NCBI GenBank assembly: GCA_000002435.2
Contig: CM018789.1
From: Giardia intestinalis
Taxonomy: Eukaryota
Length of the DNA: 64,000 nucleotides
Strand: one strand, 5' to 3'
Under the pieces are notes generated by a model. It did not search any database, was not told where the DNA came from, and worked only from the letters and a program-made list of their open reading frames with translations. Below are positions 7,334 to 37,279 of this stretch, one piece after another. The translations under genes and the position numbers were made by a program. Within the stretch, counting starts at the first letter, position 1, and every line of letters begins with the position of its first letter.

Positions 7334-9151
7334 ATGCTCCTGCTTGCAGGTCTGCTGGCTTTTGCTCTAGGATCTGACGAGTGTCCTTACTACACCACTA
7401 AGGTAGGCCTCAAGTGCGTGCATAATGGGTGCGTGGTTTTCGACTACCGTGGCATTCCTTCCGAATGTGGGGGCCTGGGATACTGTTCCGAAACACCTGC
7501 TAACTCTTGGGGCTGTGTTTGCATGTATGGGTCTATTGCCGTAGGGAGCAACTGCGTTTCACAATCCTGCGTTAAGCCAGGCACAGACCTTGAGTGTTCC
7601 GGCAACGGAATGTGCATTAGAGAGAAGTGCATCTGCTCTCTCAGGCACAGCGGACTCTACTGTGAGAAACCTATCGACGACCTTTGTCCAAGTAACATGG
7701 TGAGCGCGGAGGGATATTGTGTTGTTGAACGATGCCGAAGTGACAACGGATTGATATGCGGAGGCCGTGGTTACTGTTTCAACAACCCCAAGTACGCTGT
7801 CCCGTGTTCCTGCGATGAGAACTTTGAGTATATTAAGTCCGGGTGTCACCCAACTAACTGTCTCGGAGTGGTAAGCGAGACCAGTGAAGTCCTTGTTTGT
7901 AATGGACACGGTGAGTGTGAGTTTGATGCAGAGAACAGCAAGTGGGGCTGCGATTGTGACGCTGGCTATGTGCGCGCGGGCCACACGTGCGTGCCTCCTA
8001 CTTGCGCTAGCTCTGGCGCTGAGCATATCTGTAGTTCTCATGGATATTGCACGCTTAACTCTGAGACAAACAGCTATTCTTGTCTTTGTCTTCACGGATA
8101 TGCAGGAGACTATTGTGAGATGTGTGCAGAGGACGCCATTCCCATCTGGAGCGGTCTCTGTCTTGCCGGTGCATGTGCCAGCTATGATGACAGTGGTAAC
8201 TTGCTAATATGTAACAACTTGGGAGGTTGCGACGAAGACGCCTCTCTTCCTGCTCCTAGATGCACCTGCTCTGAGGGCGCATTCTTTAAAGACGGCAATT
8301 GCTACCCACTGTACTGCAGGACTGGGCCCCATGAGATATGCTCTAATCACGGGACATGCAGCTATGATGGTTGCAGGTGTGAAGAAGGATATTGCGGTGG
8401 CTATTGTGAGAACAAGGTCATCACTTGTCCTGATGGAGAAACCTTCCTGGACGGGTCTTGCTATCCGTCTGCGTGTGTCATCAACAATACTGTTTGCAGC
8501 TACTTTGGCCAGTGCGTCAGAGACGAGGCGACGGGAACAGCTCGCTGTGTTTGCCCGAAGAATCTTCTCCAAGCAAACGACGGTTCGTGCATCCCAATGG
8601 CATGCATTTTCAATGGAGAGGTGTGTCCAAATATGGGCCCCTGCCAGATTGTCGGCGAGGACGAATATGAGTGCTTCTGTAACTTCATCACCAGCACAAT
8701 CGTTGACGGACAATGTGTGCCATATAAATATCTCAGCAAGAATCTTTTTGGCGAGTATGTCATATGTAATGGCCGTGGGAAGTATGATGTGGGTTCCGAC
8801 AGCTGTATCTGCCACTCACTATACAAGGGGCCTTCCTGTGAGTTCTGCGCGGAGAATGCTGTGGTGATCAATGGAGAGTGCTACCCCATGTCCTGTGTGA
8901 ACATACACCACGACGGGACTGCAGCTGTCTGCGGAAATTATGGTCAGTGTATGCTATCGCACGAGACCCACAATCCTGCCCGTGAAATATACAGCTGCAT
9001 ATGCCGCGGATACAGCCATGAGAGCAACCTCTGCGTCTCCAATGTCTGCATGCCCTTCGTCGACGGTCCTGTGTGCAGCGGCCACGGATACTGCGATGGT
9101 GGCGCCTGTATATGCGATAGCGGATATCGTGGTGTGCAGTGCGAATATTAG
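7334..9151 (+). CDS. secreted high-cysteine EGF-like / tenascin-like repeat protein, with N-terminal signal peptide and no C-terminal TM or CRGKA tail
   Basis: N-terminus MLLLAGLLAFALGS is a signal peptide. About 14% Cys arranged in repeated CxxxGxCxxxxxxCxCxxGYxGxxC EGF-like modules over 605 aa. Ends ...GYRGVQCEY without a hydrophobic anchor. Confidence 0.8.
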   Translation: MLLLAGLLAFALGSDECPYYTTKVGLKCVHNGCVVFDYRGIPSECGGLGYCSETPANSWGCVCMYGSIAVGSNCVSQSCVKPGTDLECSGNGMCIREKCICSLRHSGLYCEKPIDDLCPSNMVSAEGYCVVERCRSDNGLICGGRGYCFNNPKYAVPCSCDENFEYIKSGCHPTNCLGVVSETSEVLVCNGHGECEFDAENSKWGCDCDAGYVRAGHTCVPPTCASSGAEHICSSHGYCTLNSETNSYSCLCLHGYAGDYCEMCAEDAIPIWSGLCLAGACASYDDSGNLLICNNLGGCDEDASLPAPRCTCSEGAFFKDGNCYPLYCRTGPHEICSNHGTCSYDGCRCEEGYCGGYCENKVITCPDGETFLDGSCYPSACVINNTVCSYFGQCVRDEATGTARCVCPKNLLQANDGSCIPMACIFNGEVCPNMGPCQIVGEDEYECFCNFITSTIVDGQCVPYKYLSKNLFGEYVICNGRGKYDVGSDSCICHSLYKGPSCEFCAENAVVINGECYPMSCVNIHHDGTAAVCGNYGQCMLSHETHNPAREIYSCICRGYSHESNLCVSNVCMPFVDGPVCSGHGYCDGGACICDSGYRGVQCEY

Positions 9152-9703: not shown

Positions 9704-12700
9704 TCACTGCATCAGTTCAAACGATTGAATGTATGTCAGGAAGGTCTGGGCCTTCATCGCCAGGGCTGTTCGTGCGTGCCCGTCTGTGCCATTCTCAGTA
9801 GCCGGCCGTTCATAAGACAGAACAATCATCAGTTTTCTAATATTATATCTGGTGATGAGCTGCCGTGGGTGAGACGAATGCAGATAGATATGCTCAAATA
9901 TATCCATACACCCCTTCCGCGTCGTGTTCTGCTTGCTTGCGCGGAGATTGACGAATAGTCTCTGGAGGAACTGCTGATCTGACGACAAAAATTGTGGAAT
10001 GCTTTCGTGCTGCTTAATAAACCGCGTCAAGTCGCCTATCACCTCGGATGCGATCTTTTCAGTACTCAGCAGAACAGAGAGCTTGGCCAGATTAGCGGGG
10101 GAGACGATTACGTTGATAATTCTCCGCCAGGACTGTTGTATGTGGCTATATTTAGAGCAATCAAAGAACCAGCTAAGTAGACAGAGCACTTTGTTGGGAT
10201 ATGTTGCAGCAAGATTGAATATTTTTGACAGCCATTGCTCCCTTCCATCTTCAACGGTAGAGAACTCCTTGAAGATCTTTTCCAAAAGACTCTGGTAGGG
10301 GACCATCAACCGGTTTTGCCGTTTTTGTTGATTTGGGAAGCGCTTTGTCGGCCGCAGCGCAGACGTTCTAAGTATTATCTCCATCGCCAGCTCAACTACG
10401 TTACCAGAGAACTCTGTTATGGGCGACGGGGAGTAGGATGACGATGCCTCCGGTGCTTGAGATGTCATCTTCTTGGATGGCTTCCGTGGAGAAGATCGTT
10501 GAGAATGTGGTCTGCTAGCATCTCCTTCGATGACTGGCGTCAGGCTGCCGTAGATAATCCTATAGCACACAGGTATGAGGCCCTTATTGAGTGCAATGGC
10601 GTGTATCTCCGGAAACTGGATGATGCTGTGGCAGAGATAGGTGGCCGAGTCCAAGATGTCGTCTGTTCGGTAGTTCTGAATGTTTATTAACAAATCTACC
10701 AGTATGTCAATTGTCTGTGATGTAAGAGATTGCACAAAATCCGGTGTGAGAACAAATTTTCGCAGTGAAGCAAAGAACGTGGTAACAATCGTGTGTATGC
10801 GATAGGGCAAAGAGGTAGAAGAGTAGTTGCTTAGGGGAGAGGCTGTGTAAGAAGCTGGTAGACAACTCATCAAGACGCAGCTTATAAAGTTGATGTAGGT
10901 TTTCAAAACGTCCTTGGAGAAGATGATGTGTGCATAGTCCAGGTCTACCAGCTTAGTGTATACCTCGATACCCTGCTCTAGAGCCTGGATCCTCTTCTCA
11001 TTCATTGCTAATATGCTCAAATAGTACTTTAATTTGGTTTCGTTATAGTCCTTGCCCTTATCAGCAAAGAATATTGACCGGAGTCTATCGCTAGTCTCCC
11101 CAGAAAGGTCCAAGTCAAAGGGATTGTTCCAGTCGACTCGCTGGCCAATGACCTGGACTTCACAGGTGGGGTAATTGTAGGGCGAACCCTCTAAGATTGG
11201 GGGCAGGAGCTTCCAGAACAGAAGAATGTTAAGCGATTTTGCAATGTACTCGTATGCATTTTCAGTTATTAATATCGTTGCATAGGATTGTGTTGAGATT
11301 GTCGGTATTTCCATTATGGACTTTGCTGGCTGAATGGCAGACGTGGAGCCTACCCGGCTATTTTTGGTGGATACGGCCTTTTCAGATGGGAGGACAGAGT
11401 CTAGTTGATACAGTTTTACCACGTGATCAAGGACCTCTCTCTCATCGGTCAAGAACTTGGAGTTGAGAATACCTACCTTCCGTGCTTTAGATGTCTTGTC
11501 TTTAAACACCAGCTTATAAATTATGCCAATGACTTGAATAACAAAGCGTGCATCCTTGGTAGACAGGAGGCAGTCGCACAGCTGCAAAATCTGAGAGTGT
11601 AGGATGAGACAGTAATCTATGGAAATGAACTCTGCAGATGCAAAGTTTCCGTCAATAAACACCTGCAGAAGATCAGAGACCACGGTCCGCGTCTCACCCT
11701 GGAGCACATTGATCAGTGCATCTTTGTCACAGGGGTACGAAACTAGTTTCTGTGACGAGTCTGCCGCAGAGGGGTCTATTTGGAAGCCTACGCATGAATC
11801 TTCACCATAGATTGACGAATTCGTATGACCCGTATCTTTATCAACAATAGGCACAACGGTAGGGATATTAGTGGGCACAATGCTCGGGGTTTCGCGACCG
11901 GTTAGCATAGATGGGTAGTGAGACAAGCCAGCATGGTCATTTTCTAGTGTCTTTGAGGTACATGAAAATCTGGGAACGTTGGGGAGCTGCAGAAGGTGAG
12001 CGTAAGATCTCGCCGGTACTGTGGTACTGTGGATTATTTCATAATAGTCTTTAGTCCCCTTCCTAGCTGAGTATTTTGGGCGTTCCTTGTCCTTTTCACT
12101 TACTCTATCTGCCCCAACGTTGATTGGCAGAGATGAGTACGTAAAGCTACGAAATGCTAGAAGCGTCCGATCAGCTGTTGCTTTAAATTCTCCCAGGAAA
12201 CTCTTCAGTGCATACTTGTCGTCAGTGTTTTGATTCTTCAGCGTGGTGTATGTTAGAAATAAATGCGTCGTGAGATGGCAGTCAAGAGATCTGATTGTAT
12301 CGTGCTGTATTTGGGATTTTTGATTGGTGGTTGTACCTGAATCGAATTGGCCGTTAACACGACCGGATCTGGCTGTGCTGATAGTATCATTCTGTAGCGT
12401 GGTCTGGGCGTCTTGGCTGTGCCGCATGAACTTGAAGCCCCGTGATTCGGAATTAACTGCCTCACATGTTTGACTTTTTATCGCTCTAAAAAAATCAGAG
12501 ATTGATTCTACAAAAGTAATAGAATTGGAGATTTTAAAATCTATTAACCTTTTCATCAACGGAGGAAGGCCCAGGGCGGTTAGGTTCATTATCAACCGCG
12601 GTGAATACTGACACAGCACATACAAAATCTTGCACAACTCTATACAGTACTCATACATGTACAGGGTCAATGCCGCATTCCAAAAGATGGCTCTGCGGGT

Positions 12701-15217
12701 TGCAAGCGACATAGCAGCTTTAGGATCTCCTCTTTTACTTTTGTTGTTTCTATCCCGCAGATCTGCATTTAAATAGTATTTCTCATCAAATTCCTTTCCG
12801 AAAAACTCCTGAGCCGCACCCAGAAACGGAACATTAGTGGATTTGGAGGGGAGTGCTTCATCGAGCAAGGAGTGGTTGGATTCCGGAAACGATCCCAGCT
12901 CACCAAATTTCTTCAAGACCAGAGGCTCTAGCGACGATGAGTGCAAGTTACTCTGAAGAGTATTTGTGAGAGAATGATACTGGGGGCGAACCATAGATGT
13001 TTTTTGCATGCCAGCTGCATAGGAACTTGGCATGTGTCTGCCCCTTGATGATGGTTTTGCCGGAGAATGCAAGCTTGCTGTGTTGTGCACTTTGAGCGTA
13101 CTAAAGGACATTTGGATCGAGTCATAGCCACTAGCAGTTGAGGATTGGTTAGAGTCTGCGTCAGGATTGCTGGAGTACAAGGCCTTGGTTCTATGTGTCG
13201 ACTCCTGGTCTCTTGGAGTAGTAAGCGGTAACCCCTGATAGTTCTGCTGTCTCTCGCGAAGAGCCTTGAGCTTGTTCTTTAGAACGCTGGTCTCTATTGG
13301 GTGAGTGTTATACAAGTTATTTAGATTAACGCAAACCTCATTGAAGTGATCCATGGACGAAGCCAATGAAGAGTTCTCTATATTGATTAGAATGTTATCA
13401 ATGTGTTGTATCACAGACAAGAAGCCACGCTTTTCCATTATGTTTGAGATTAGGACCCCCGCTGTCTCCGTTGGCTGCAGACTCTCTAGGTCCAATTCAT
13501 ATGGCAAGAAGGGTGAGGGATCCTCTTCCCCGTTGGTAGGGTTTTGGTGCCCTCCGCTACCATCAGCAATAGCCTCTTGCTGTTTCTGGGGAAACATATG
13601 ACCTCTAAAGATGCAGGAGAGCTTCTTACGCTTCTGCGAAGTTGAGATTGCTTTTAGTAACTTGTGTGCGTCTATTATGGAATATGATGCAAAGACGTTC
13701 TTCTCTAGTATGCGGAGATGCTGCTTTATTGCTTTCTTGTTAATCTTGGGAGTCATAAGGATATTGCTCATAAAGGTGTGTCGCATAACTCCGTCAATAA
13801 TTACAGAGTCTTGGCCCGGGGGTTCCTTGCAAGAAACGTCTAAGATATCATTGCTCATAGTCCCGATCAGGGAATTGTATTTGTTGTCGTCGCTGAGGTC
13901 CTGGATGTCTGGAAAGAGAGTTAGGTCATCACTGTCAGAGTTGATGCTTAAAATGGAATCTGTCTGGATATTTATGAGCGGATCTGCTCCGAAAAGAGAT
14001 TCTGAGCGCTCAAAGTCCCGTTCCAGACGCCTTGTCCTCACAGTTTCAAGTCGTGTGGCCAAGGTGTCATGTGTAAGGCTGGAAAACTGTGGAGCCGAGG
14101 AGCCTGCGTTGTGTCTGACAGAGGACTTTGAGAGGGGCTTTTCCGAGACCTTTGGGCTTGTTGATTTTGGATAGCTTGGATTCTGTAATGTGTGCATGTC
14201 TAAAGTGCTGGAATTGGGCTCCTTGGTGGGCGGGAGTGCTTGAACATCTTTCCCTGTGCTCGATTCTCTGCTTGATCTTCTGCTCGACTCCTTGGGTGAT
14301 CCTGGTAGCGAAAAGCCTTTCGGTGGTGGGAGCATGTTATTGGTCAATGTAAGCTTTGCTGACTCTCTTGGGCCAACAAGCTGCTTTTGCCTCATAAGGC
14401 TGTTTGCATTTTTGATGAGCCACGGGTGATTCAGAAGCTCAGCACAACTGTGCCGCTCATGCGGATCAATTTTGAAGCAGCACGAAAGGAAATCTGCGCA
14501 CTCGGGGGAGATGTTGGGGGGAAGCGGCATCTCCGTGAGCGTTGCAATGTTATACATTGCTGCAAACCCCGTAAGGTTGTGAAAGGGCGGCTTCTTAGTT
14601 AGTAGCTCAATCATCGTGGCACCTAAGGACCAGACATCAGACTTAGTGGATACACCCTCTTCGTTGATCACCTCTGGGGCAAGCCAATAAGGAGACCCCT
14701 CGACGACGGTCGGATCCACATCTTGAAGCCGTTGAGAGAGGCCAAAGTCAGTCAGTTTGCAAAGTCCAGAAGAGGTCATCAAAATGTTTGCCGCCTTAAT
14801 ATCTTTGTGGATTATGCCCTGCTCGTGTAGATATTTAAGTCCCAACAATATTTGGTAAATATAGCATGCTACCACATTTTCTCCCAAATCATCATATTGC
14901 TTAATTAACGTCTGCAAAGAGCCAAAATCTACTAATTCTAGAATAATATAAAGGTAATTCTGCTCTAAGAAGCACCCCCGGTACTTCACTATGTTGGAGT
15001 GGTTCAGTTTAGACAAAAGGTTTATCTCAGACATCACTTCCTTGATAAATCCCTGGTCAACAGCTTTCTTTTTGCCCTTAGGCTCCAACTGCTTGAGTGC
15101 CACAAAACCACCTGTTACTTCATCTGCTGCTTTCCACACCTTCGCGAAGGCCCCTTTTCCTATGAGGCAATGTAAAGTGTAGCGGCCACGTATGGTGAGG
15201 GGATTGTCTGTCTGCAT
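9704..15217 (-). CDS. giant STE-group Ser/Thr protein kinase, Cdc15 / Cdc7(S. pombe) / SepH / MAP3K-epsilon-like, with an N-terminal kinase domain and about 1550-aa ARM/HEAT-like tail
   Basis: The kinase domain carries these motifs: [11 protein letters not shown] (Gly loop), VALKQ (VAIK), [11 protein letters not shown] (catalytic loop), [14 protein letters not shown] (APE), [13 protein letters not shown]. The pattern IIHxDIKxANIL followed by a long C-terminal tail is characteristic of Cdc15/MAP3K-epsilon kinases. Confidence 0.8.
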
Positions 15218-15763: not shown

Positions 15764-16384
15764 TTACTTGTTAGAGATCGTGTTGACATCACCAGAGCCA
15801 GGGACCCACTGTGCACACTCAGCCATGTACGAGTCCATGTCTAACAACTTCTGCTTCTGGAGGAGGTCGAACTCGCTCATCACCATGTCAACCTCCTTGC
15901 TGGCCTGAGAGCTCTCGTTGTCGATTCGGATCGCAGAGTCCAAGCTGTCCTCCATATAGCTTTGCCTAATTTGAAGGTTTTGCATTTCGCGCGAAAACTT
16001 TGCCAACTGCTGCTGCATCTCCTTATTATTAACGTTCTTATTTAAACTGGCCATGATTGCGGCGGACTTAGAGATGATTCCGCCCACAACTTCGAAGGAC
16101 TTGGCCAACTGCATGTTCATTTGGAGAGATAGGATTTGAGCCTTCGAGACACTCAAGCGCTTGATATTGTCCTTAATTCTAACCAAGCACTTTGCGTGGA
16201 TTTCGGCAGAGGAGCGATCACCGTCCTGCGCAGCCTTTCGAATTTGCTGTTCAACTTTTTTTCTTTCGAACTCCAGCTGCATCCTCTCTCGTTCAATGCT
16301 CCTTATAGTTTCTCTGGCTTTCTCTTTGTATGCCTCGAGACTAGCTGCGATAGTACGCTCCTTCATTTCTTTTTTGTCCCACAA
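15764..16384 (-). CDS. ESCRT-III subunit, Snf7-family charged MVB protein, closest in pattern to Vps2/CHMP2 (or Vps24/CHMP3)
   Basis: Length 206 aa. Basic N-terminal helical half (RETIRSIERERMQLEFERKKVEQQIRKAAQ...AKCLVRIK) and acidic C-terminal half with a terminal amphipathic MIM-like helix (EFDLLQKQKLLDMD). This matches the charge polarity typical of ESCRT-III. Confidence 0.7.
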   Translation of the reverse strand: MWDKKEMKERTIAASLEAYKEKARETIRSIERERMQLEFERKKVEQQIRKAAQDGDRSSAEIHAKCLVRIKDNIKRLSVSKAQILSLQMNMQLAKSFEVVGGIISKSAAIMASLNKNVNNKEMQQQLAKFSREMQNLQIRQSYMEDSLDSAIRIDNESSQASKEVDMVMSEFDLLQKQKLLDMDSYMAECAQWVPGSGDVNTISNK

Positions 16385-16748: not shown

Positions 16749-18317
16749 TCAACTAAACCCCAAAGCAGATCTTAGAAACTCAAGCTGCGTGGCGCGCAAG
16801 CTGTCATTGATCGACCACGATGTGTACAGATCTGTGCAGTGCGACCCATTCGGTATGTACGATGTGGTCGAGCCATTATGGAGATGATGCCCTGTGGACC
16901 AGGTCTCCCCTTCACGATAACTGAGCTCGCTCCACGGGTCCACGTGACCATTCGTAATGTAGATGTTAGACATCTTGATGTTTCTGGCACCATAGTACAC
17001 GTTAGTGAACCGGACAGCCTTGTTGACGAGGTCATCGCTCTGGGAACGTGTGAAGCTAGGGGCACCCGGCGGTGTAGCGCCCGGGGCAAAGTACGCTTTG
17101 TAGCACATCTCGAGGAAGTAGTCTAGGGTGATCATGGTGCCAAAGCCCGCAGCAGGGCTCGACGTCTGATAATAACCAAACTCCACACACGTCTGCCACA
17201 GCCACGATCGATCTACTGCAAACTCTGAATCTATGCTGGTATCCTGTATGGCCTTAATATACCCATCGAATGAAAGGTCAATCTCTTCCATTGAACCCCC
17301 GTAGTAGTCTAGTAGCCATGAAGCATATGCTTTAAGGTCCTGGTAGCTCTCTCCAGTGTCGTAGCTATCATAGGATGCCTCAATAGCCTTGCACATCTGC
17401 TTGATATCACCATCCTTCGTGGTGTTGTAATACCCATCGTGCTTAGCGTACTGCACAACACCAGAGGGAGCGCCCATAGCAGACATGAAGCTGGCCTTAT
17501 CATACCCTGTGCTATTGTAAATGCTTTCCTCTTTGAGCTTAAAGATTGTAGCCAAGGTCGCCTTGTCGTGACTTAGCAGGTATTCCGCATCCTTGTGGGC
17601 GGCAGAAATGATGTCCATGCAGCGGTCCCCTCCATACTTCCGTACCTGAGAATCAATGTGCTGAAGGTATTCTGGATAGTCTGTCTGTGCCAGATATGGG
17701 CCGCTGGAAGAGATTGCAGCGTCAATAATGAACGGAAACTGAATGCGGGCCCACGCAGCCAGATTGCCCGAATAGGATCCGCCGACTGCCACAATCTTTG
17801 TACCCTCTGGAAGATTATACTCTCGCTTCAAATATGCAAGAAACGTAGCTATATCGGCCAGTGCTTGGTCTGAACGGAGGAGGCTCAGGTTAGCTGAATT
17901 CGTGCTTGGAAACGAAGCTCCGTAGAAGCGATGCTCAAGTGCAACCTTGAGGCCGTTCATGTTCTTTGCAAAGTAGTCAATGCTGAAGTAGTCTCCGACA
18001 TCTCTTGGAGTAGCCGGTCCCTCCCCGCCTATCATGAGAAAGACGGGCCCCCCTGCCTTGTAGTAGGTGTCATTGTAGTAGTACCTTTGCGACCACTTCT
18101 TGGTATTCGTAGAGTCAAAGTGATCCACGTGCTGTTCACGGAACCAGAGTTCCCCGGGGTAGTGTTGGACCCTCACTGGTTTTGGTGCCTTTAAAGGGAC
18201 AGGAGAGCCATCTGGAGACAGGTCGGTGTCCAGGCTGCGGGTGAAGATAGAGGAGACGCGGGAGAGGGGCTTCTTTGAAATGCTTCCGAGAAGGAAGATA
18301 AAGAGAAGCGAAATCAT
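16749..18317 (-). CDS. serine carboxypeptidase S28 family (lysosomal Pro-X carboxypeptidase-like), secreted
   Basis: N-terminal signal peptide MISLLFIFLLGS. GGSYSGNLAAW is the S28 catalytic-Ser GGSYGG motif. QRYYYNDTYYK..GPVFLMIGGEG conforms to the S28 N-terminus. Length 522 aa. Confidence 0.75.
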   Translation of the reverse strand: MISLLFIFLLGSISKKPLSRVSSIFTRSLDTDLSPDGSPVPLKAPKPVRVQHYPGELWFREQHVDHFDSTNTKKWSQRYYYNDTYYKAGGPVFLMIGGEGPATPRDVGDYFSIDYFAKNMNGLKVALEHRFYGASFPSTNSANLSLLRSDQALADIATFLAYLKREYNLPEGTKIVAVGGSYSGNLAAWARIQFPFIIDAAISSSGPYLAQTDYPEYLQHIDSQVRKYGGDRCMDIISAAHKDAEYLLSHDKATLATIFKLKEESIYNSTGYDKASFMSAMGAPSGVVQYAKHDGYYNTTKDGDIKQMCKAIEASYDSYDTGESYQDLKAYASWLLDYYGGSMEEIDLSFDGYIKAIQDTSIDSEFAVDRSWLWQTCVEFGYYQTSSPAAGFGTMITLDYFLEMCYKAYFAPGATPPGAPSFTRSQSDDLVNKAVRFTNVYYGARNIKMSNIYITNGHVDPWSELSYREGETWSTGHHLHNGSTTSYIPNGSHCTDLYTSWSINDSLRATQLEFLRSALGFS

Positions 18318-18383: not shown

Positions 18384-20855
18384 ATGTCTGGCCCAGGTCG
18401 CCGTGGTGTAAAGAACCGCTGCAATGCACTATTCATTAACATGGCTACCATTTGGAATACCTATGGGTTTGACGTAATGATGTATCATCTTCTATGTAAC
18501 GAAATTCTTGTCTACACCTTCTTTCTGATGAGCATCTACTCTGCTATCTATACCATCTATGGTATAATTGATTTCTCCTCCTCTCAGGCCCTTCTAACCT
18601 CAAACCTCTTCACGGTTATGCAAGGATATGGATATGATTGGATTTCCTTTGCCGTACAGATGTCTGCCATACTTGCTTTTGTTCTCTATACCAAGTTCCT
18701 GCTCATTTATAGACGCGACTTACTGAGAATCCAGGAATTGACACATCTAGACGTGAGTTTATATACACTTTTCCTTTACAACGTTAGGGCTAAGACGCGC
18801 GATGAAGACATAATTGCGCGCATCGACAAGGACTTAACATATCTAAAAGGTACATTTGCTGTTCCCAAAGAGGTACAGCGACCAGTAACCAAGGAGCAAG
18901 ACCCTAGGGGCGATAGAGGCGAAGCGTTCCATGTCTCAATGCATGAGAAGGTCATCAAGTGCGGGCAGAAGAGGTGGGGAAGAAAGGGTGATTGCGAAAG
19001 AGAGCATCACATAGATCACATCTTCTCATTGGAGAGGATTCGCGACTTAAATGTCTATCATGCTAAGAGACGTCTTGCAGAACTTGAGACGCAATACTAT
19101 AATCAGATTAAGGCAAATCCCCAGAAGCTTGTACCAAAGCGTGGTCGTGGAGCATCCTGCCTAAAGGCGCTTGGGATTATCAAGTGCATGCAAAAATATG
19201 GGCTTCTGCGGGATGCTATTTGGTATAATGAGGCTATTAAATGGGAGAAAATGAAAGTACAAAAGATGGAGGCCATGAGTTCAGAGACAAGCAAAGGAAT
19301 GGCTATTGTCATTTTCAAGTTGGCCTCAGCAAAAACGGCTTTCTACAATCATCGGCAGTCTTACTTGGGAGACAGATATGTCGCGGTTAAAGGAAACATC
19401 ATACGTGTCACCAAAGCACCATCACCCAGCGATGTGAATTGGGATAATGTGCACAGAGGGAGAGCTATTTTCCTTGTGATGTTCCTCTGTTGTCTTCTCC
19501 TTTCATTACTGCTTACATCCGTTGTTTATTTGATCACCGCAGTGATCAGAGCTTATCAGCGAATCATTGCGTCTCAGACAACCTCTGTCATTACGTCGCT
19601 CGCGCTAAGTGGAAGTATGTACCTTGTTATATTACTTTCCGATTATCTGGGGAGGGTCTTGATGACCAAGATCGTCCAACTAGAGCGCCATCACACAACC
19701 TCTGCGTATGAAACATCGTATCTGCTCCGTTACTTTATCTATATCTTTATCAATAGACTGACACCTCTATATTCCCGAACAATCTTGGAATATTTAACCA
19801 ATCTATTCACCAATCTATTCAAGCCATTGAACCTGAACAATTATTATTTTTTTAAAATAATAGACTTCACGAAAGATTGGCGGTGGGGAAAAGATACTCC
19901 GGGGCGCGACATATTAATGTATGTGATACTAGCAACTGTCCTTGATAACACACTTGATGTTATCCTGCACTATTTGCAACCCGCTGCATGGGGTGAATGC
20001 TGTCATAAACGTCACACAAGTAGCCCTGAACATCTCATAGAACGTGGTGATAGCGTTGTTGAGGAGAACACAGAAACAATAAGCTTGGTGACTACCAAGG
20101 CAAAGTACTACTGTGGCTGTCACTGTGAGTTCTGCAGAGTGCGGTCACATGACGAAGAAGCTTTGCGGCTAAAGCTAGAGTACAGCATGCTCTATTGCAG
20201 ACTGGCATCTATATTCACTTACAGTCTATCATTCGGATATACTCAGCCCGTAATACTCCCTATCGCATGTGTGTATTTTCTTTTGCAGAACATTGTGGGC
20301 AAATGCAAGCTCGTCTACTTGTCTAAACCGGGAAGGAAATTCTCAACCTCTCTGTCATCATATTTTTGTAACGTATTGCTGACCTTTAGCTATCTATTTG
20401 CAACAGCTACATTAGCTCAAGGGTATCTGTCCAGCGCGGTTGTGCCAGCTGGAATAGCTCTCTCTATTGGCTTCCCAATCGTCATTCTCTTCTCAGCTAT
20501 CTTCAATACTGCAACTATATGTGCTCTTATTAAAATCTGCCGCTGCAGAAGGAAAATTGAAAAGGAGACGTCCCTTCGCAAGAGCATCATAAGCCATAGT
20601 TATGGAATGCTCAGCAAAGAGATAGAAGAGGAAAGGCGGTTCAACAAGATGCCCATCTATGATCCTGACCTGCATGGAGAATATATATTTCAGCCAACAA
20701 CGGGCTATTCTGAAAAAGAATGTGCAAAGCTAAAGACTCTCTTATCTAGTGCAATCTCAGGAAAGGCAGATGACTCCAGCGCCACGCCTGAGGTAACAGA
20801 GGCGATGGCCGTATCGAAGTTAAGAGCCTCTCCTACATCGTCACAGATAGACTAG
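18384..20855 (+). CDS. OSCA / TMEM63 / CSC1-like (DUF221, RSN1_7TM) putative mechanosensitive or osmosensitive cation channel
   Basis: Multi-pass membrane protein of 823 aa. N-terminal TMs, then a cytosolic domain ending in RYVAVKGNIIRVTKAPSPSDVNWDNV, which matches the OSCA 'AP.P.DI.W.NL' signature. About 8 further TM helices follow. The start could instead be the internal Met at 18441. Confidence 0.6.
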   Translation: MSGPGRRGVKNRCNALFINMATIWNTYGFDVMMYHLLCNEILVYTFFLMSIYSAIYTIYGIIDFSSSQALLTSNLFTVMQGYGYDWISFAVQMSAILAFVLYTKFLLIYRRDLLRIQELTHLDVSLYTLFLYNVRAKTRDEDIIARIDKDLTYLKGTFAVPKEVQRPVTKEQDPRGDRGEAFHVSMHEKVIKCGQKRWGRKGDCEREHHIDHIFSLERIRDLNVYHAKRRLAELETQYYNQIKANPQKLVPKRGRGASCLKALGIIKCMQKYGLLRDAIWYNEAIKWEKMKVQKMEAMSSETSKGMAIVIFKLASAKTAFYNHRQSYLGDRYVAVKGNIIRVTKAPSPSDVNWDNVHRGRAIFLVMFLCCLLLSLLLTSVVYLITAVIRAYQRIIASQTTSVITSLALSGSMYLVILLSDYLGRVLMTKIVQLERHHTTSAYETSYLLRYFIYIFINRLTPLYSRTILEYLTNLFTNLFKPLNLNNYYFFKIIDFTKDWRWGKDTPGRDILMYVILATVLDNTLDVILHYLQPAAWGECCHKRHTSSPEHLIERGDSVVEENTETISLVTTKAKYYCGCHCEFCRVRSHDEEALRLKLEYSMLYCRLASIFTYSLSFGYTQPVILPIACVYFLLQNIVGKCKLVYLSKPGRKFSTSLSSYFCNVLLTFSYLFATATLAQGYLSSAVVPAGIALSIGFPIVILFSAIFNTATICALIKICRCRRKIEKETSLRKSIISHSYGMLSKEIEEERRFNKMPIYDPDLHGEYIFQPTTGYSEKECAKLKTLLSSAISGKADDSSATPEVTEAMAVSKLRASPTSSQID

Positions 20856-20948: not shown

Positions 20949-21758
20949 ATGATTAAAATGAACTCGCAAGATGACCAGAGTGAAGAGCTCTTTATGCCAG
21001 AGGCGGAGTTCTCTGATGTTCAGCTTAACCTAGAGTTCGCTGACTCGTCAGAAGACTTTAAACCGGAGATTGAGACGCTAGCTGGTGCATTTTGGGCACA
21101 GACGCCACACAGTGAGCTTGCCTTTGAATTGGCCAAAATAGTTTCAGCCCAGCCTGAAATTGGTACAGTTGCTTGTGGCGACGACTCGGCTGTCCTAGGA
21201 TACCATAGTATAATTAACTTAGGACAGCACATGCATATCTCAGCCATAGAGGCCCTCTTTGACTTGCTATTAAATGCCTTAGAAGAATACAAAGACACGT
21301 TGCCGCCTGCTAAGCTTTTCTGGCAACGCCTTAAGGCTGGGACTGTTTGCCTAGGGTTTCTGACTACAGGCCGCTACACAAATTTGCCTATGAGTGCAAT
21401 TGCAGCCTTCTATCAGGTTGTCAAGGACGACATAGAGTGGGCCTCTAGTGCAAAATACAATAGCAGCACTCCGTCACATCTCTTTAAGTTCACTCACATC
21501 CTTTACATCACCAAGGCCGTGCTGAAGGATACTGAGCCTTCCATGAACCAAACAACTGGGTGCACAACTAATCCATTAAACCGCCTCAAGAAACGAAGCC
21601 TGGCTCGGCCAGAGGACACAACCATTATTGAATGTTCTCTATTTACTCTTCTTGTACCAGCTTCCTTGGGCTCATTTACCTGCTGGGTGATCTCTGTTCT
21701 AGATTTGGCCGGGTACCTTCGTGTCTCGAAAGCATTAGCTGATGAGGACTTCGATTGA
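20949..21758 (+). CDS. hypothetical protein, 269 aa, acidic N-terminus
   Basis: ORF with codon usage consistent with its neighbours. No motif recognised. Confidence 0.5.
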   Translation: MIKMNSQDDQSEELFMPEAEFSDVQLNLEFADSSEDFKPEIETLAGAFWAQTPHSELAFELAKIVSAQPEIGTVACGDDSAVLGYHSIINLGQHMHISAIEALFDLLLNALEEYKDTLPPAKLFWQRLKAGTVCLGFLTTGRYTNLPMSAIAAFYQVVKDDIEWASSAKYNSSTPSHLFKFTHILYITKAVLKDTEPSMNQTTGCTTNPLNRLKKRSLARPEDTTIIECSLFTLLVPASLGSFTCWVISVLDLAGYLRVSKALADEDFD

Positions 21759-21823: not shown

Positions 21824-24800
21824 TCAGCGTGGTCCCTTCAGTAGTTCCCGAATGCGGTTATCGTTAGCCCAGTACAGCGCGTTCTTCTTGTCTGGCTGGG
21901 TGATGTCCAGCTCCTCATCTAATAGTAAACGAACACATGCTTCATGCCCATTTGTTGCAGCAGCCATGAGCGCAGTGAAGCCTTCACCAAGCTCATAAGC
22001 TGCGGTAGTCGTCATTCTGACCTCCATATCCTTCAACAATTTGACACAGTCAGTGTACCCATTCCAAGCGGCAAACATGAGCGCCGTGCGGCCCTCCTTA
22101 TTCTGCATACGTCCCTCTACGGGAAGAAGCATGCGGCAGGCCTCCAAATTCCCCTTACTTGCGGCAAGCATTAACGAAGTTGTTCCATTGTTCCAGCCGC
22201 GGCCAGTCATCTGCATTTTCGCCTCATAAGGTATGAGCAAACGCATTATTCCGAGATACCCCCGTTCTGCAGCAATCATGAGACCCGTGCGGCCATTTCT
22301 ATCTGTGAGCTTAGCCTGCTTGGCCAGTAATGAATATACCTGAACAATGTCATTAAGTTCAGCCGCTTGCATGAGTTCTGTGCAACTCTTTCCGTCGTGC
22401 GGAAGAATATCATCTGTGCTGGGTGTCTCCCGACGAGCTAGTATTTCCGCTGTCTGTAAATTGCCAGCCTCCAAGGCGAAAGCCAGCGCTGTCTGCCCAT
22501 CTTTTGTCATTATTCCAGCTTCAGCGTTCAAAAGGCAATAAACTGCATCAGTGTAGTCGAGCTTTGCAGCTATCATTAGGGCTGTTTCCCCATTACTATT
22601 TTTCTTCCCAGCCTCCACAGGAGCAAGAAGTTTGACGAAGTCCAACTTTCGCCGAGTTACGGCTATCATAAGTGCCGTGTAAAGTGGATAGGGAGGAATG
22701 TCTCTAGTCTGCATGCCCGCCTCTCTATTTATTAAGCGCCGCGCAATATCAAGTCTATCATGTTCTACTGAATACATCAGTGCGGTCCTGCCGTTAATAT
22801 CCATCAATCCAGCTGAGAGATCTATCAGCAACAAGGCTGCATCGGTAAACCCAACTTGGATGGCATACATCAACGGCGAAATACCTTGTTGATCTTGCCT
22901 TCTTGAAAGGCTATCCATAGCTTGTTGCACAGCCGTGATATCCTTATTAGTTATGGCACGGAAAAGAACGTTGTCATCGTGCTGTCTTTGCATGGTTGTG
23001 CGTACAATATTTGTATTAATAGTTGGGGACACTGCTTCGGAGACAGTCACTGTTTCCACCATAGGGCTTATGGTAGTGTTGACGACGCTGACTCGCCGAT
23101 CTATAGGTTTGGGTACATTTGCCAGAGCCGTGGACGCTGAGGAGGGACGATAAATTACATCCTGCAAAAGACCATGTGAAGCATTTGCATTAGGCTCCAA
23201 GAGCGGCTGTTCCTTATGTGACTGGTGGGCATTAGGGGCATGGCCTCCCGGTAAGTAATCATCGTTTCCGGTATGTGCTTGCTGAATCGTAGCAAATCCA
23301 GGAGTGAACAGAGACGGGGTTGCTGTTGTCACAGAGTCCTCAATTGGTGCTGATGTTATGCTGCCGCGCCTATTCTCAATAGCGTGCTGCAACGCGGAGA
23401 GGATGTCGTCTTCGGAGATACGTGCTGGCGTTTCGTGCATCCGTCGAGGATCCAGTGAGCTCATTTCATGCATATCGGGGATACCTCGCAATGCAGAATT
23501 GGGGCCGGCTGCAGACGCAGAGCCTGGGCGTGATGATCCCTGCTGCTTGGCATGTCCAGAACTCTGAAAAGTGTATGTACCTGAACCTGCAGGATAAGAC
23601 TGTCCCGAAACAAGCCTTATGGCCTCTAACTCAGCGACCCGTTGCTTCAGTTCTGAGCATTCCCTGATGTACTTTTGAATATTTGCCTCTTTGTTTTGAC
23701 GTAGAGGCTGCAAAATACTGATGAAATCTTGCCGTAACTTGTCTTGGGCTATAGCCAGAGCAGAATCTATATCACGTAACTCAAACATGATGCTTTTGCT
23801 CAAAAGGGCAGACAATGCAACTGTGGATCCACCCATCACGGCATAATAAAGAGCCGTGTTACCTGCTGCATCCCTCTCTGTGCATAGTTTTTCCAGAAGT
23901 ATGTTTATGGATTGCACGCTTCCACTGTGTGCTGCAAGCATCAAAGCAGTGCAACCAGCCGGCCATGTGGAAAGTTGTGTTGTGGAGAAGTAGGCCTCAT
24001 AGTCTAATAGTAGCTTGACGATGAGATAGTGTCCAGAGATCACAGCATGCATGAGAGCTGTAAATCCATCAGATTGCTGAATCCCTGCTTCATGCTCTGC
24101 TAAGACAAAAGCTATGTCAATAAAGCCATTGCATGCAGCATGCATGAGTGCTGTCTTGTTATCTCTATCTCTTACCCTCGCCATTATACCTACATGAGCC
24201 TTTACATATGCGACATTATTTTGCTGGACGGCAGAGAACCAGGCATCGCCGAGATCTGTCTGGGTTCCAATAGAGTTACTGGCCATAATTTGAGATATAT
24301 TGAGCCTGCTACTAGAGAGACTCGGCGGAAGGGCATAGGCTGGGCCCTTTTGAGAGTCTTTGGCATCTGGAAATTCAAGGCCGTGCTGCTGCTTGAGCTG
24401 TGCCAGTTCAGTAGTCAGAGCTTCTATTATTCCTGCTTGAGAGGTGATTTCGAACTTCTGTAGCATGTAATCGTTTCGAAGCTTTTCAAGCTCTTTGTTA
24501 TCAGCATTCTCAGAAAAATTTAATTGCGATGATTCCATAATACAAACATTAGAGTACAGTTTAGATACAAAGTCTGTTACTTTCTCTTTTTTAGTTTCAG
24601 GTAAATCTAAAAGAATTTCATGAAACGTACAATCCATATCTTTGTCGGGAAAATGAAGTGTGCGGAGCGGTGTCTTAAGCTTTTCTGCAAGGCGGGAAGC
24701 TGGAGACATTCGTATGGATGTAATTGCATCTAGCGCCGACAGAATAGTCTTATCTTCATACACCTTGCTGCCATCTAGGTTCAGCATTGGAGAGGTAAGC

Positions 24801-26398
24801 CTGTTATGACTCAGCGGAGGGGTAGCAGCAATTTTACTTTTAACCAACGTGTGCCCTTCTAATGCAGTTATATATTTTTGAACATCCTTCCAACTTTCTA
24901 TTGCATCTAAAGGAGAAATACCGTTAGGCATATTCGATAAGTCTTCTGCAGTGGTTACCATGGCCAGCTTTCCTGGAGTGTTTGACGATTGATGATTAAT
25001 TAGGTTGACCATTGGTGCCATCGCACTAATAAGCTGCTTGGTGGTCTTGACTGCAGGACTATTAACGACCTCAAGCACGCTTTGATATGTCCGCGCAGAT
25101 GGCGGGGTATTCGTTCCATTTGCTACTGTTCCTATATGTGACAACGCTAAGCGCAGATTTCGCTCAATTTCGCTAAAGGAGCTAAAAGAACGGTCAGTCT
25201 GCACAACGGGAGCAGGAGCAGACGATGCACCGGCGAATGGCTGCATGTTCAATGTTGGCAGAGTCGACTCCGTATTGATAAATGTGTGCAAAGTAGAAGG
25301 GTTAGAAGACGTGATCCCCGTGGGGATATGCTGTGATAACGTGCTCACATCCGAAAGAGTGCTAAAATCGTAAGGCACATAAGGTTTGTACGTGGATGAT
25401 GTATTGGTGCTTATCTTTGGGGCTGTAAAGTTGGCTAACGGTGAAAGAGATCCATGAGTAGCTGTGGTAGAGTCGATCACGTTGGAGTCTGGTAACACAG
25501 AGAAGCCGTCAACTGACGTCTTTGTATCAGCCTGCTTCTGTTGCTGTGCACCAAAGTGGTAACTTCGTTGCATAGGTTGCTGAGTCTGTTTCCCGGGGGT
25601 GAGTGACTCTACTCCCATTGACTTCGATAGGGAGGGTCTTAAATTGTCAATGAATCCATCAGGACGAGGGATCTTAGACGTGACATTCATAGAGGACGCC
25701 TGTGAAGCGTCGCTATCTGCTGTAAGGATATTATTTGCCGAGGCTGCTGGCTTGAAGCCATCTTTGACATCTGTCTTGAGTGATTTAACATTTATTTGGG
25801 AACTTGCAAAGGAATGATGATGCTCAAGAGCCTCCTTCAACGCTGTCTCAATTGCACCAAGGTCCTTAGCCCGTGCTAAAGAAAGAGAGAGCTCAAGCAC
25901 CTCCTCTTGGAAGACCATTCTTTGTAGCAAGAGGCGAACACAAACAAGGCTCTCCGCTAGAACCGCATAGTCCAGAGCACAGAGATCGTGACTGTCCCGC
26001 CTGTACGACACATATTTTAGGAGCACAGAAAGAGACTCCACAGAGACCGATTTGGCGGCAATCATAAGGCAGTCTCGCCCTCGGTCACAATAGATATTGG
26101 CCTCGTACGGAGCTAAAAGTTCGCAAACGTCAGGGTAATCCCTCGAGGCAGCAATCATTAACGCTGTCCTGCCATCTCTTGTCATTCGCCCATGTTCGTG
26201 GGCAGCCAGGATGCGAACAATGCCTATTTTGTTCAAACGGGCAGCCAAAATAAGAGCTGTATCTCCAGCATCATTCACGGTGAGCTTATACTGTGGCAGA
26301 AGCTGTTGAATAAGGCTCGTGTCACCTGCCTCCACGGCACCAAACCAGTCTGCGCTTCCTGGCATCAGAATTTTAATGAAATATTTACTTAACTTCAT
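21824..26398 (-). CDS. ankyrin-repeat protein of the Giardia 'Protein 21.1' type, with ANK arrays at both ends flanking a long Ser/Thr/Pro-rich and coiled-coil middle
   Basis: Many 33-aa repeats of the form G.TALM.AA..G......LL (for example DGRTALMIAASRDY, NGETALMIAAKLDYTDAVYCLL). The central region contains LKQRVAELEAIRL coiled coil. Length 1524 aa. Confidence 0.8.
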   Translation of the reverse strand: MKLSKYFIKILMPGSADWFGAVEAGDTSLIQQLLPQYKLTVNDAGDTALILAARLNKIGIVRILAAHEHGRMTRDGRTALMIAASRDYPDVCELLAPYEANIYCDRGRDCLMIAAKSVSVESLSVLLKYVSYRRDSHDLCALDYAVLAESLVCVRLLLQRMVFQEEVLELSLSLARAKDLGAIETALKEALEHHHSFASSQINVKSLKTDVKDGFKPAASANNILTADSDASQASSMNVTSKIPRPDGFIDNLRPSLSKSMGVESLTPGKQTQQPMQRSYHFGAQQQKQADTKTSVDGFSVLPDSNVIDSTTATHGSLSPLANFTAPKISTNTSSTYKPYVPYDFSTLSDVSTLSQHIPTGITSSNPSTLHTFINTESTLPTLNMQPFAGASSAPAPVVQTDRSFSSFSEIERNLRLALSHIGTVANGTNTPPSARTYQSVLEVVNSPAVKTTKQLISAMAPMVNLINHQSSNTPGKLAMVTTAEDLSNMPNGISPLDAIESWKDVQKYITALEGHTLVKSKIAATPPLSHNRLTSPMLNLDGSKVYEDKTILSALDAITSIRMSPASRLAEKLKTPLRTLHFPDKDMDCTFHEILLDLPETKKEKVTDFVSKLYSNVCIMESSQLNFSENADNKELEKLRNDYMLQKFEITSQAGIIEALTTELAQLKQQHGLEFPDAKDSQKGPAYALPPSLSSSRLNISQIMASNSIGTQTDLGDAWFSAVQQNNVAYVKAHVGIMARVRDRDNKTALMHAACNGFIDIAFVLAEHEAGIQQSDGFTALMHAVISGHYLIVKLLLDYEAYFSTTQLSTWPAGCTALMLAAHSGSVQSINILLEKLCTERDAAGNTALYYAVMGGSTVALSALLSKSIMFELRDIDSALAIAQDKLRQDFISILQPLRQNKEANIQKYIRECSELKQRVAELEAIRLVSGQSYPAGSGTYTFQSSGHAKQQGSSRPGSASAAGPNSALRGIPDMHEMSSLDPRRMHETPARISEDDILSALQHAIENRRGSITSAPIEDSVTTATPSLFTPGFATIQQAHTGNDDYLPGGHAPNAHQSHKEQPLLEPNANASHGLLQDVIYRPSSASTALANVPKPIDRRVSVVNTTISPMVETVTVSEAVSPTINTNIVRTTMQRQHDDNVLFRAITNKDITAVQQAMDSLSRRQDQQGISPLMYAIQVGFTDAALLLIDLSAGLMDINGRTALMYSVEHDRLDIARRLINREAGMQTRDIPPYPLYTALMIAVTRRKLDFVKLLAPVEAGKKNSNGETALMIAAKLDYTDAVYCLLNAEAGIMTKDGQTALAFALEAGNLQTAEILARRETPSTDDILPHDGKSCTELMQAAELNDIVQVYSLLAKQAKLTDRNGRTGLMIAAERGYLGIMRLLIPYEAKMQMTGRGWNNGTTSLMLAASKGNLEACRMLLPVEGRMQNKEGRTALMFAAWNGYTDCVKLLKDMEVRMTTTAAYELGEGFTALMAAATNGHEACVRLLLDEELDITQPDKKNALYWANDNRIRELLKGPR

Positions 26399-27889: not shown

Positions 27890-28500
27890 GATGATTCACT
27901 CCGCCCACCGGCTGCCCCCGGCGCTAGCTATTGAGCTCCGCGACGGACCCTCCATCCTTGGCCGTGGAGCGGGGCTCCTCAAGGCAGCAGGGGGCCAGCG
28001 CGGTCGCCGCTCCCATCCCCAGCCGCCGGGCTAGCACGCCCACTGAGCCGCGACAGGCCCATCAGAGTCTACTTGTTTGCATGTTCTGCGGAGGGCGGCG
28101 CGTTTCTACCGTGGGTCAGGGGGCGAGGGATCTCGTCGGAAGCCGTGCAGATGCACCGATCGGGCAGCAGCCCCAGAAGATCGCCAGCCTGGCCTGTGCT
28201 GGCAAGTCGGGCAGTGGCGACGAGCGCTCCGGTCCGGGAGAACATGGTCTGCCCGTGTCTTCGCGCTGTCCACCGGCGGCCCCTCGCCTCCCGATCTGCT
28301 GCCCACGGGTGAGGACGGGGGCGACAATCGTTGCGGCCCTTGATGGCCCGCTGGGGGCCGGGCTCCTGCCATGTCAGAGGCAGATGCGCAGCCCGGCCCT
28401 AGAGCCAGCCCTGGATGAGTCCCTGCACCGCGCCCCGGGCGGCCTCGCTGGCGGCGGCGGCGGCCCTGACCCCGTGTGCCTTCGCCTCGTAGGGGGCCAG
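27890..28500. other. GC-rich island (about 68% GC versus 48% background), mostly non-coding, 3' of the ANK pseudokinase gene and 235 bp from the tRNA
   Basis: Abrupt composition shift is visible directly (ccgcccaccggctgcccccggcgc...). Only Arg/Pro/Gly-rich artefactual ORFs occur, in several frames. Confidence 0.5.
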
Positions 28501-37264: not shown

Positions 37265-37279
37265 CGACCAATTTTAAAA

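Follow-up and report, generated by a model that had tools for sequence, protein, structure and literature searches.

The GL50803_16834 locus and its published record

We analyzed a window of 64,000 nucleotides from Giardia intestinalis (contig CM018789.1 of assembly GCA_000002435.2), in which the list of open reading frames (ORFs) places a minus-strand ORF with an ATG start at 9704..15217, encoding 1837 aa. Its translation is 100% identical to the G. intestinalis WB protein XP_001709184.1 / A8B7B0, found by homologue search, and its sequence is that of GL50803_16834 in Additional file 1 of Manning et al. 2011 (PMC3218828); the existing annotation of XP_001709184 / GL50803_16834 reads "Kinase, STE STE11." Since the identical annotated WB protein is present on 147 contigs and full-length orthologues exist at 81% and 66% identity, together with a Giardia muris orthologue, the ORF is confirmed as a genuine gene rather than a chance reading frame. 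An alignment of five Giardia orthologues showed the frame to be unbroken from end to end, the extreme C-terminus included. The features of the gene product are collected in Table 1.

Table 1. Layout of GL50803_16834 in window coordinates
Feature	Position	Strand	Basis
Complete CDS of GL50803_16834, 1837 aa plus stop codon (9704-9706)	9704..15217	(-)	ORF listing, translation
Protein kinase domain, aa 14-267; STE group, Cdc15 subfamily	14417..15178	(-)	Pfam PF00069, E 4.9e-70
Catalytic loop, aa 135-147; HKD replacing the usual HRD	14777..14815	(-)	translation
Activation segment DFGLS...SPYWLAPE, aa 157-182	14672..14749	(-)	translation
Low-complexity linker, aa 268-575; S/T/P-rich, likely disordered	13493..14416	(-)	composition
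Middle region, aa 576-1149; conserved helical islands at ~aa 586-660 and 840-895, poorly conserved inserts between	11771..13492	(-)	alignment
Tail, N-terminal part, aa 1150-1417; helical, conserved within Giardia	10967..11770	(-)	alignment, AF2
Tail, C-terminal part, aa 1418-1837; homologue of the last ~310 positions of the tail domain in Cdc15/Cdc7/SepH/SepA/MAP3K-epsilon, predicted armadillo-type	9707..10966	(-)	

The Cdc15-type classification of this protein is already known, having been published between 2009 and 2011: Franzén et al. 2009 gave Giardia homologues of Tem1, Cdc5, Cdc14, Cdc15, Bub2, and Mob1 (PMC2723961), and Manning et al. 2011 put GL50803_16834 in STE/STE11/CDC15, the kinase.com class (PMC3218828, Table 2 and Additional file 1). 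Naming the gene brings nothing new beyond these kinome and genome papers, which were all that literature searches by gene ID and by function returned; no study of localisation, knock-down, or biochemistry was found. Serial analysis of gene expression (SAGE) recorded the gene as differentially expressed, in the cluster "Trophozoites & Encyzoites" with R = 27 (PMC3218828). An earlier note on this DNA had described the gene as single-copy, which does not hold: Manning et al. list a paralogue in the same genome and the same kinase.com CDC15 subfamily, GL50803_6199, which lies outside the window (PMC3218828). The best class HMM for this paralogue is also Cdc15 (118 bits vs 81 for MEKK and 89 for STE20), but it is a catalytically dead pseudokinase.

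Kinase domain

A Pfam search of the ORF product found the kinase domain and no accessory domains beside it. The kinase motifs that had first drawn attention to the ORF lie at the expected positions: the Gly-loop GKGAFAKV at aa 20, Lys42 of VALK, the catalytic Asp139 and N144 in the catalytic loop, Asp157 of DFG within DFGLS at aa 157, and SPYWLAPEV at aa 175, with the GSPYWLAPE motif in place. With K42, D139, and D157 all intact, the N-terminal STE-group kinase domain is predicted to be catalytically competent. The domain is 98%, 96%, and 69% identical to those of three orthologue classes, the first two figures referring to G. intestinalis lineages and the last to G. muris, and the activation segment is unchanged across the five aligned Giardia orthologues. 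The catalytic loop reads HKD in all Giardia orthologues and in the homologue P0277, and HRD in the Cdc15/SepA/MAP3K-epsilon relatives compared. This substitution suggests that regulation through the activation loop may differ.

In the homologue search, the best full-length matches outside Giardia were yeast Cdc15 proteins and a SepA-like protein, with a kinase-domain identity of 43-46% to the yeast Cdc15-like proteins. Pairwise comparison of the kinase domain by phmmer gave 227-236 bits to Cdc15/SepA/MAP3K-epsilon relatives, the top scores (229-236 bits) belonging to Dictyostelium SepA and plant MAP3K-epsilon 1/2; human MAP3K2 (MEKK2), which is the best PDB match, scored 176.7 bits and MST3 158.8. 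A homologue search with the kinase domain by itself yielded no protein of 500 aa or more, its matches being for the most part fragments of plant MAPKKKs, and was of no use for classification.

Class HMMs run on the kinase domain gave 315.7 bits for Cdc15, 280.1 for MEKK, and 249.1 for STE20, the lead of Cdc15 over MEKK being only 18-36 bits. In a neighbor-joining (NJ) tree with bootstrap, the only tree built, GL50803_16834 fell within the Cdc15 clade and separately from both MEKK and STE20, with a modest bootstrap of 44-52%; it was sister to family members in 52% of replicates vs 14% for MEKK. Another Giardia kinase, GL50803_1656, joined MEKK2 and plant MAPKKKs instead. The kinase domain is thus nearer to the Cdc15 subfamily than to MEKK or STE20, a placement that the tree favors weakly, and the reading agrees with the class of Manning et al. 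2011.

Two other classes were considered and rejected. On HMM score the protein does not fit a MEKK/Ste11-type MAP3K class (280.1 vs 315.7 bits for Cdc15). Kinases of that type, such as human MAP3K2 and Giardia GL50803_1656, belong to the same STE11 family but score lower in both HMM and pairwise comparisons, form a separate clade, and are without the Cdc15-type armadillo (ARM) tail. For the STE20/GCK class (Hippo/MST-type), the HMM score was the lowest of the three, the STE20 clade is separate, and Pfam found no SARAH or CRIB/PBD accessory domain.

Spacer and C-terminal tail

The earlier note had seen a very long helical-repeat tail behind the kinase domain. This stands for the last ~420-690 aa, which model as a helical solenoid, but not for residues ~290-1150, which are mostly low-complexity (pLDDT ~37), rich in S/T/P/N/Q, poorly conserved, and largely absent from G. 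muris. Within the linker, the S+T+P+N+Q+G fraction rises to 0.51, the orthologues share 69%, 60%, and 32% identity with it, and G. muris lacks 186 of its residues. For the middle region, we detected no homologue outside the diplomonad lineage and obtained no confident hhalign match to the family tail; the AF2 model of aa 575-1160 was uninformative, with a mean pLDDT of 37.5. About 860 aa of GL50803_16834 are mostly a lineage-specific, fast-evolving, and largely disordered spacer.

Yeast Cdc15 is regulated through a cluster of CDK sites, and the Giardia protein, differing in this from its yeast counterpart, carries no sign of one. A yeast-like cluster was rejected because S/T-P dipeptides number 18 against 16.5 expected from composition and show no conservation; of the protein's two full CDK consensus sites, neither is conserved. 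Since S/T-P is not enriched and the CDK sites are unconserved, a yeast-like CDK/Cdc14 switch is not indicated.

An exhaustive HMMER search with the Giardia tail profile against 1.84 billion representatives recovered only Giardia orthologues and P0277. As this sequence-to-profile search revealed no link to the family, profile-profile comparison was needed, for which we built a tail-domain profile of ~520 aa from SepA/MAP3K-epsilon tails. Overall, the comparisons gave probabilities of 89.6-96.9% and E values of 2e-6 to 2e-10; hhalign aligned aa 1418-1834 to family positions 208-520 at 96.4-96.9% (E 1e-9 to 2e-10). The family-tail HMM also matched the G. muris orthologue, and P0277 serves as a bridging homologue, with an E value of 8e-15 to the Giardia tail profile and its own match to the family-tail HMM at 1.6e-12. 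These results match the last ~420 aa confidently to the family-specific tail, to which they are homologous.

For the family tail's first half, hhalign gave no confident mapping onto the Giardia protein. Only greedy hhalign aligned aa 1150-1417 to family-tail positions 3-217, with low per-column confidence, and the AF2 model of this segment is helical at pLDDT 30-70. This segment may plausibly represent the opening half of the tail seen in the Cdc15 family. In AF2 models, the C-terminal tail folds as ARM repeats, so that its predicted fold is of the armadillo/HEAT type the earlier note expected. That note's assignment to the Cdc15/Cdc7/SepH/MAP3K-epsilon type is likewise upheld, by the best pairwise and class-HMM scores, by the homologous C-terminal tail, and, weakly, by the topology of the NJ tree, which places the protein in no other STE subfamily.

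The protein shares with Saccharomyces cerevisiae Cdc15, Schizosaccharomyces pombe Cdc7, and Aspergillus SepH an N-terminal STE kinase, a long spacer, and an ARM-type tail that runs to the C-terminus, a tail common to S. pombe Cdc7 and Ogataea Hcd2 (PMC9105162). It differs in being almost twice as long, in its lineage-specific sequence, in having HKD and not HRD, and in a tail that is alignable over its second half only. SepA and MAP3K-epsilon 1/2 are alike in giving the top kinase scores and in supplying the tail profile that the Giardia C-terminus matches; however, among themselves these tails share 40-60% identity even between eukaryotic supergroups, but only ~17% with the tail of Giardia, which sits on a very long branch. 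What is added to the published record is small: a formerly "undetectable" C-terminal region is the armadillo tail of the Cdc15 family in a very divergent form, and the lineage carries an HRD-to-HKD change.

Possible role in mitotic exit and cytokinesis

In yeasts, kinases of the Cdc15 family set off mitotic exit and cell division, and plant and Dictyostelium members have functions beyond mitotic exit. We consider it probable, at roughly 60%, that GL50803_16834 is a catalytically competent member of the family that would act in a MEN/SIN/Hippo-like module; a mitotic-exit/cytokinesis role in Giardia is something we infer from orthology only. Judging from yeast Cdc15 and Cdc7 and from plant MAP3K-epsilon, the tail would serve as a targeting and regulatory scaffold that binds both a GTPase of the Tem1/Spg1 type and a scaffold at the spindle pole; the corresponding sites in Giardia would be basal bodies or spindle poles. 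GL50803_16834 would in turn switch on an NDR-family kinase that is bound to Mob1, and the resulting module would link mitotic exit to cytokinesis.

In both yeasts and plants, members of the family work together with Mob1 (PMC7761452, PMC8910673); plant MAP3K-epsilon binds MOB1A/1B (PMC8910673). Giardia is reported to have Mob (PMC7761452) as well as two NDR kinases and MST (PMC3218828). Since the genome is reported to encode homologues of Tem1, Bub2, Polo, Cdc14, and Mob1 along with two NDR kinases, a MEN-like module is plausibly complete in Giardia. The partners named in the earlier note (Mob1, Dbf2/NDR, and Spg1/Tem1) are accordingly on record in the literature for the genome, but none lies in the window, where we found no MEN partner genes and the neighbors are unrelated. 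A Snf7/ESCRT-III gene adjoins GL50803_16834, which we take as coincidence.

A true Cdc15 orthologue might instead have been redeployed to flagellar, basal-body, or ventral-disc morphogenesis or to encystation signaling. This is unlikely in our estimation, even though several observations suit it: the life-cycle expression seen by SAGE, the divergent regulation that the ~860-aa insert and HKD would imply, and the roles of plant MAP3K-epsilon in pollen germination and cell expansion (PMC8910673). The loss of the actomyosin-ring targets of MEN/SIN suits it too: Giardia has neither myosin nor an actomyosin ring (PMC2723961), and the classical downstream targets are therefore absent. Against it, both upstream and downstream MEN-like parts are kept in the genome, other flagellated protists, e.g., Trypanosoma brucei, rely on NDR/Mob1 modules to control cytokinesis (PMC7761452), and nothing ties GL50803_16834 directly to flagella, disc, or encystation.

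We think it quite improbable that the protein is a conventional MAP3K feeding the single Giardia MAP2K (GL50803_22165) and ERK1/ERK2 rather than NDR-Mob1. The Cdc15 subfamily does lie within the STE11 (MAP3K) family, and the protein is one of Giardia's three MAP3Ks above one MAP2K (PMC3218828); the MEKK class HMM score of 280 bits, the PDB match to MAP3K2, and the 14% of NJ bootstraps that join it to MEKK-type kinases point the same way. However, the Cdc15 class scores 18-36 bits higher, the C-terminal tail is that of the Cdc15 family and not a MEKK regulatory region, and there is a separate, STE11-unclassified MAP3K in GL50803_1656, which groups with MEKK2 and plant MAPKKKs. That the gene is decaying or nonfunctional, a long frame with a kinase remnant, is effectively refuted: although poorly conserved, low-complexity sequence makes up over half of the protein and the sister CDC15-class gene is catalytically dead, all catalytic residues are intact, the kinase domain is strongly conserved within G. 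intestinalis and to G. muris, the uninterrupted ORF persists to the extreme C-terminus in five orthologues, and SAGE tags were detected.

Beyond membership in a MEN/SIN/Hippo-like module, a bolder version, which we hold to be doubtful, is that Giardia has kept a complete Tem1-Cdc15-NDR/Mob1 module without myosin or a ring, and that the kinase controls flagella- and membrane-traffic-driven cytokinesis from the basal bodies, aided by the diplomonad-specific HKD loop and ~860-aa insert. If this were true, the ancestral MEN/SIN/Hippo output would predate, and be independent of, constriction of an actomyosin ring. For reverse genetics on the timing of division in a cell without myosin or a contractile ring, the gene is a sensible choice, and a MEN/SIN-type kinase from the upstream end of the cascade in a flagellate that branches deeply could reveal what the cascade governed before there was an actomyosin ring.

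Class of the kinase domain

The motifs quoted in the earlier note are present in the translation of GL50803_16834: a 13-residue motif (aa 135), DFGLS (aa 157), and SPYWLAPEV (aa 175). Over the full protein, the protein kinase domain (aa 14-267, E 4.9e-70) is the sole above-threshold Pfam match, and its catalytic core is complete (K42, D139, N144, and D157). The product matches XP_001709184.1 (UniProt A8B7B0) of Giardia intestinalis WB at 100% identity; that entry carries the database name "Kinase, STE STE11." Full-length orthologues occur in an assemblage B-type genome (ESU42007.1, 81% identity) and in a further Giardia lineage (66%), and the G. muris orthologue is 1403 to 1408 aa long.

When the full protein was used as the query, the best matches outside Giardia were Cdc15 and Cdc15-like proteins of yeasts together with a SepA-like kinase from a protist, with 43 to 46% identity over the kinase domain. 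A search seeded with the protist kinase returned more than 100 family members, including Dictyostelium SepA, plant MAP3K-epsilon 1, an Anaeramoeba homologue, and a fungal "protein kinase of the Mitotic Exit Network." By phmmer, the kinase domain scored 227 to 236 bits against Cdc15-family members, 176.7 bits against human MAP3K2, and 158.8 bits against human MST3. Class HMMs from a single source alignment gave 315.7 bits for Cdc15, 280.1 bits for MEKK, and 249.1 bits for STE20.

The closest relative outside Giardia is P0277 (277 bits over the kinase domain), a 1928-aa Ala/Gly/Pro-rich protein encoded on a 20-kb contig from a publicly available sequencing-run assembly, whose source is probably another fornicate or diplomonad-like organism. 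P0277 and every Giardia orthologue share an HKD catalytic loop in place of the canonical HRD; the roughly 119 Cdc15/SepA/MAP3K-epsilon relatives retrieved have HRD, never HKD.

A neighbour-joining tree was built from 68 kinase domains, including the Giardia STE kinases from the kinome supplement, with the MAP3K2 and MST3 sequences taken from PDB alignments. GL50803_16834, its G. muris orthologue, and P0277 fell within the Cdc15-family clade, outside the MEKK and STE20 clades. Bootstrap support was modest: in 300 replicates with rogue taxa removed, the Giardia clade had family members alone as its sister group in 52%, and a clade of Giardia plus the full set of core family members, with no other sequence, appeared in 44%. 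The Giardia clade joined MEKK-type kinases in 14%. Because of these modest values, the kinase domain by itself favours the Cdc15 class but does not settle it.

A divergent family tail and a low-complexity middle

Cdc15/SepA/MAP3K-epsilon proteins have in common a domain of ~520 aa that reaches the C terminus; its sequence is strongly conserved across amoebae, plants, and fungi, and it can still be detected in several budding-yeast Cdc15-like proteins. This domain has no Pfam match in GL50803_16834, and the Giardia tail profile, run exhaustively against 1.84 billion representative proteins, did not recover it, matching only the Giardia orthologues and P0277 (E 8.3e-15). Profile-profile comparison aligned the Giardia tail with the family tail over 272 columns (Prob 89.6%, E 1.9e-6). 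Adding P0277 raised this to Prob 96.9% and E 1.7e-10, and a longer query (Prob 96.4%, E 1.2e-9) placed aa 1418-1834 on family positions 208-520; the first half of the family tail found no confident placement in these comparisons. P0277, which bridges the two tails, was matched on its own by the family-tail HMM (E 1.6e-12); this HMM also reached the C terminus of the G. muris orthologue. The alignment is colinear up to the extreme C terminus on both sides, and in it the family block ...R.NLLKIL..LYE.HP.PK.LI..Y.L... is set against a 32-residue Giardia segment. The new detail is that the C-terminal region, formerly without a detectable domain, is a highly diverged version of the Cdc15-family armadillo tail.

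GL50803_16834 has the family-type architecture, and the Cdc15/MAP3K-epsilon identification made in the earlier note is upheld by the top-scoring class and the matched tail; it also withstood the refuting conditions set in that note. The "very long helical-repeat tail" described there holds for the C-terminal part only: aa ~268-1149 are rich in S/T/P/N/Q, not helical repeats, and AF2 gave the middle region a pLDDT of 37.5 with a few helical islands. Identity to the closest orthologue is 69 to 76% in the linker and middle versus 98% in the kinase domain and 87 to 88% in the tail; kinase and tail are under strong purifying selection. The G. intestinalis protein exceeds its G. muris orthologue by ~430 aa. 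Most of its "giant" size stems from ~365 linker/middle residues absent from G. muris, and since these lie in low-complexity stretches, the inserts arose or expanded recently. A yeast-like cluster of CDK sites was considered and rejected (18 S/T-P sites versus 16.5 expected); there are two full CDK consensus sites, neither conserved.

Published record and genomic neighbourhood

Both the gene and its CDC15 classification are already published. Manning et al. 2011 (PMC3218828, Additional file 1) give this same sequence as GL50803_16834 (GK077) and class it as STE / STE11 / CDC15 and "Active (K,D,D present)." That kinome counts three MAP3Ks in Giardia, two of them homologous to S. cerevisiae Cdc15, and also includes a pair of NDR kinases and one MST-like kinase. 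The second Cdc15 homologue, GL50803_6199, is catalytically dead (PMC3218828), and its existence contradicts the earlier description of the gene as single copy. SAGE data in the supplement (R-value 27.04, cluster "Trophozoites & Encyzoites"; PMC3218828) show that GL50803_16834 is expressed and differentially regulated. Our literature search on this kinase found no localisation, knock-down, or biochemistry paper.

Features of the kinase gene and its neighbours
Feature	Coordinates	Strand	Details
GL50803_16834 ORF	9704-15217	-	uninterrupted, ATG start, 1837 codons + stop
Linker and middle region	11771-14416	-	aa 268-1149
HKD catalytic loop	14801-14809	-	aa 137-139
Cysteine-rich protein	7334-9151	+	605 aa; EGF-like and teneurin-type EGF matches
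Snf7/ESCRT-III	15764-16384	-	206 aa; PF03357, E 1.5e-14
S28 serine carboxypeptidase	16749-18317	-	
Anoctamin/TMEM16- or OSCA-like membrane protein	18384-20855	+	
BCCIP	20949-21758	+	
Ankyrin-repeat protein	21824-26398	-	1524 aa; Ank_2, E 1e-102
Ankyrin-repeat protein	28399-32796	-	1465 aa; Ank_2, E 2e-121
Third, smaller ankyrin-repeat protein	35909-37264	-	
Alpha-SNAP	37244-38128	+	
MYG1 exonuclease family	38543-39628	-	
Nup54	43587-44579	-	

The Snf7/ESCRT-III ORF is the immediate upstream neighbour of the kinase and shares its strand. ESCRT-III has a role in abscission in other eukaryotes; the adjacency is probably coincidental. The cysteine-rich protein, downstream on the opposite strand, probably belongs to the high-cysteine membrane or VSP-like proteins of Giardia, and the ankyrin proteins resemble the expanded Giardia ("21.1"-type) set. 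None of the six housekeeping neighbours (carboxypeptidase, anoctamin-like protein, BCCIP, alpha-SNAP, MYG1, and Nup54) is a MEN/Hippo partner.

Predicted role in division

By analogy with yeasts and their mitotic-exit and septation networks (MEN/SIN), plants, and trypanosomes, the kinase would activate an NDR-Mob1 complex in late mitosis, and the armadillo tail would target and regulate it through GTPase and scaffold binding, possibly also by autoinhibition. Homologues of Tem1, Cdc5, Cdc14, Cdc15, Bub2, and Mob1 were reported in Giardia by Franzén et al. 2009 (PMC2723961), who argued that control of its cytokinesis is similar to that in other eukaryotes even though it has no myosin; Giardia Mob genes are also mentioned in a MOB review (PMC7761452). 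Actomyosin targets are absent from Giardia. Less probably, the kinase acts as a conventional MAP3K on Giardia's single MEK or has been redeployed to morphogenesis or encystation. As a Cdc15-family kinase, GL50803_16834 is a sensible, if obvious, choice for functional study of Giardia cytokinesis.
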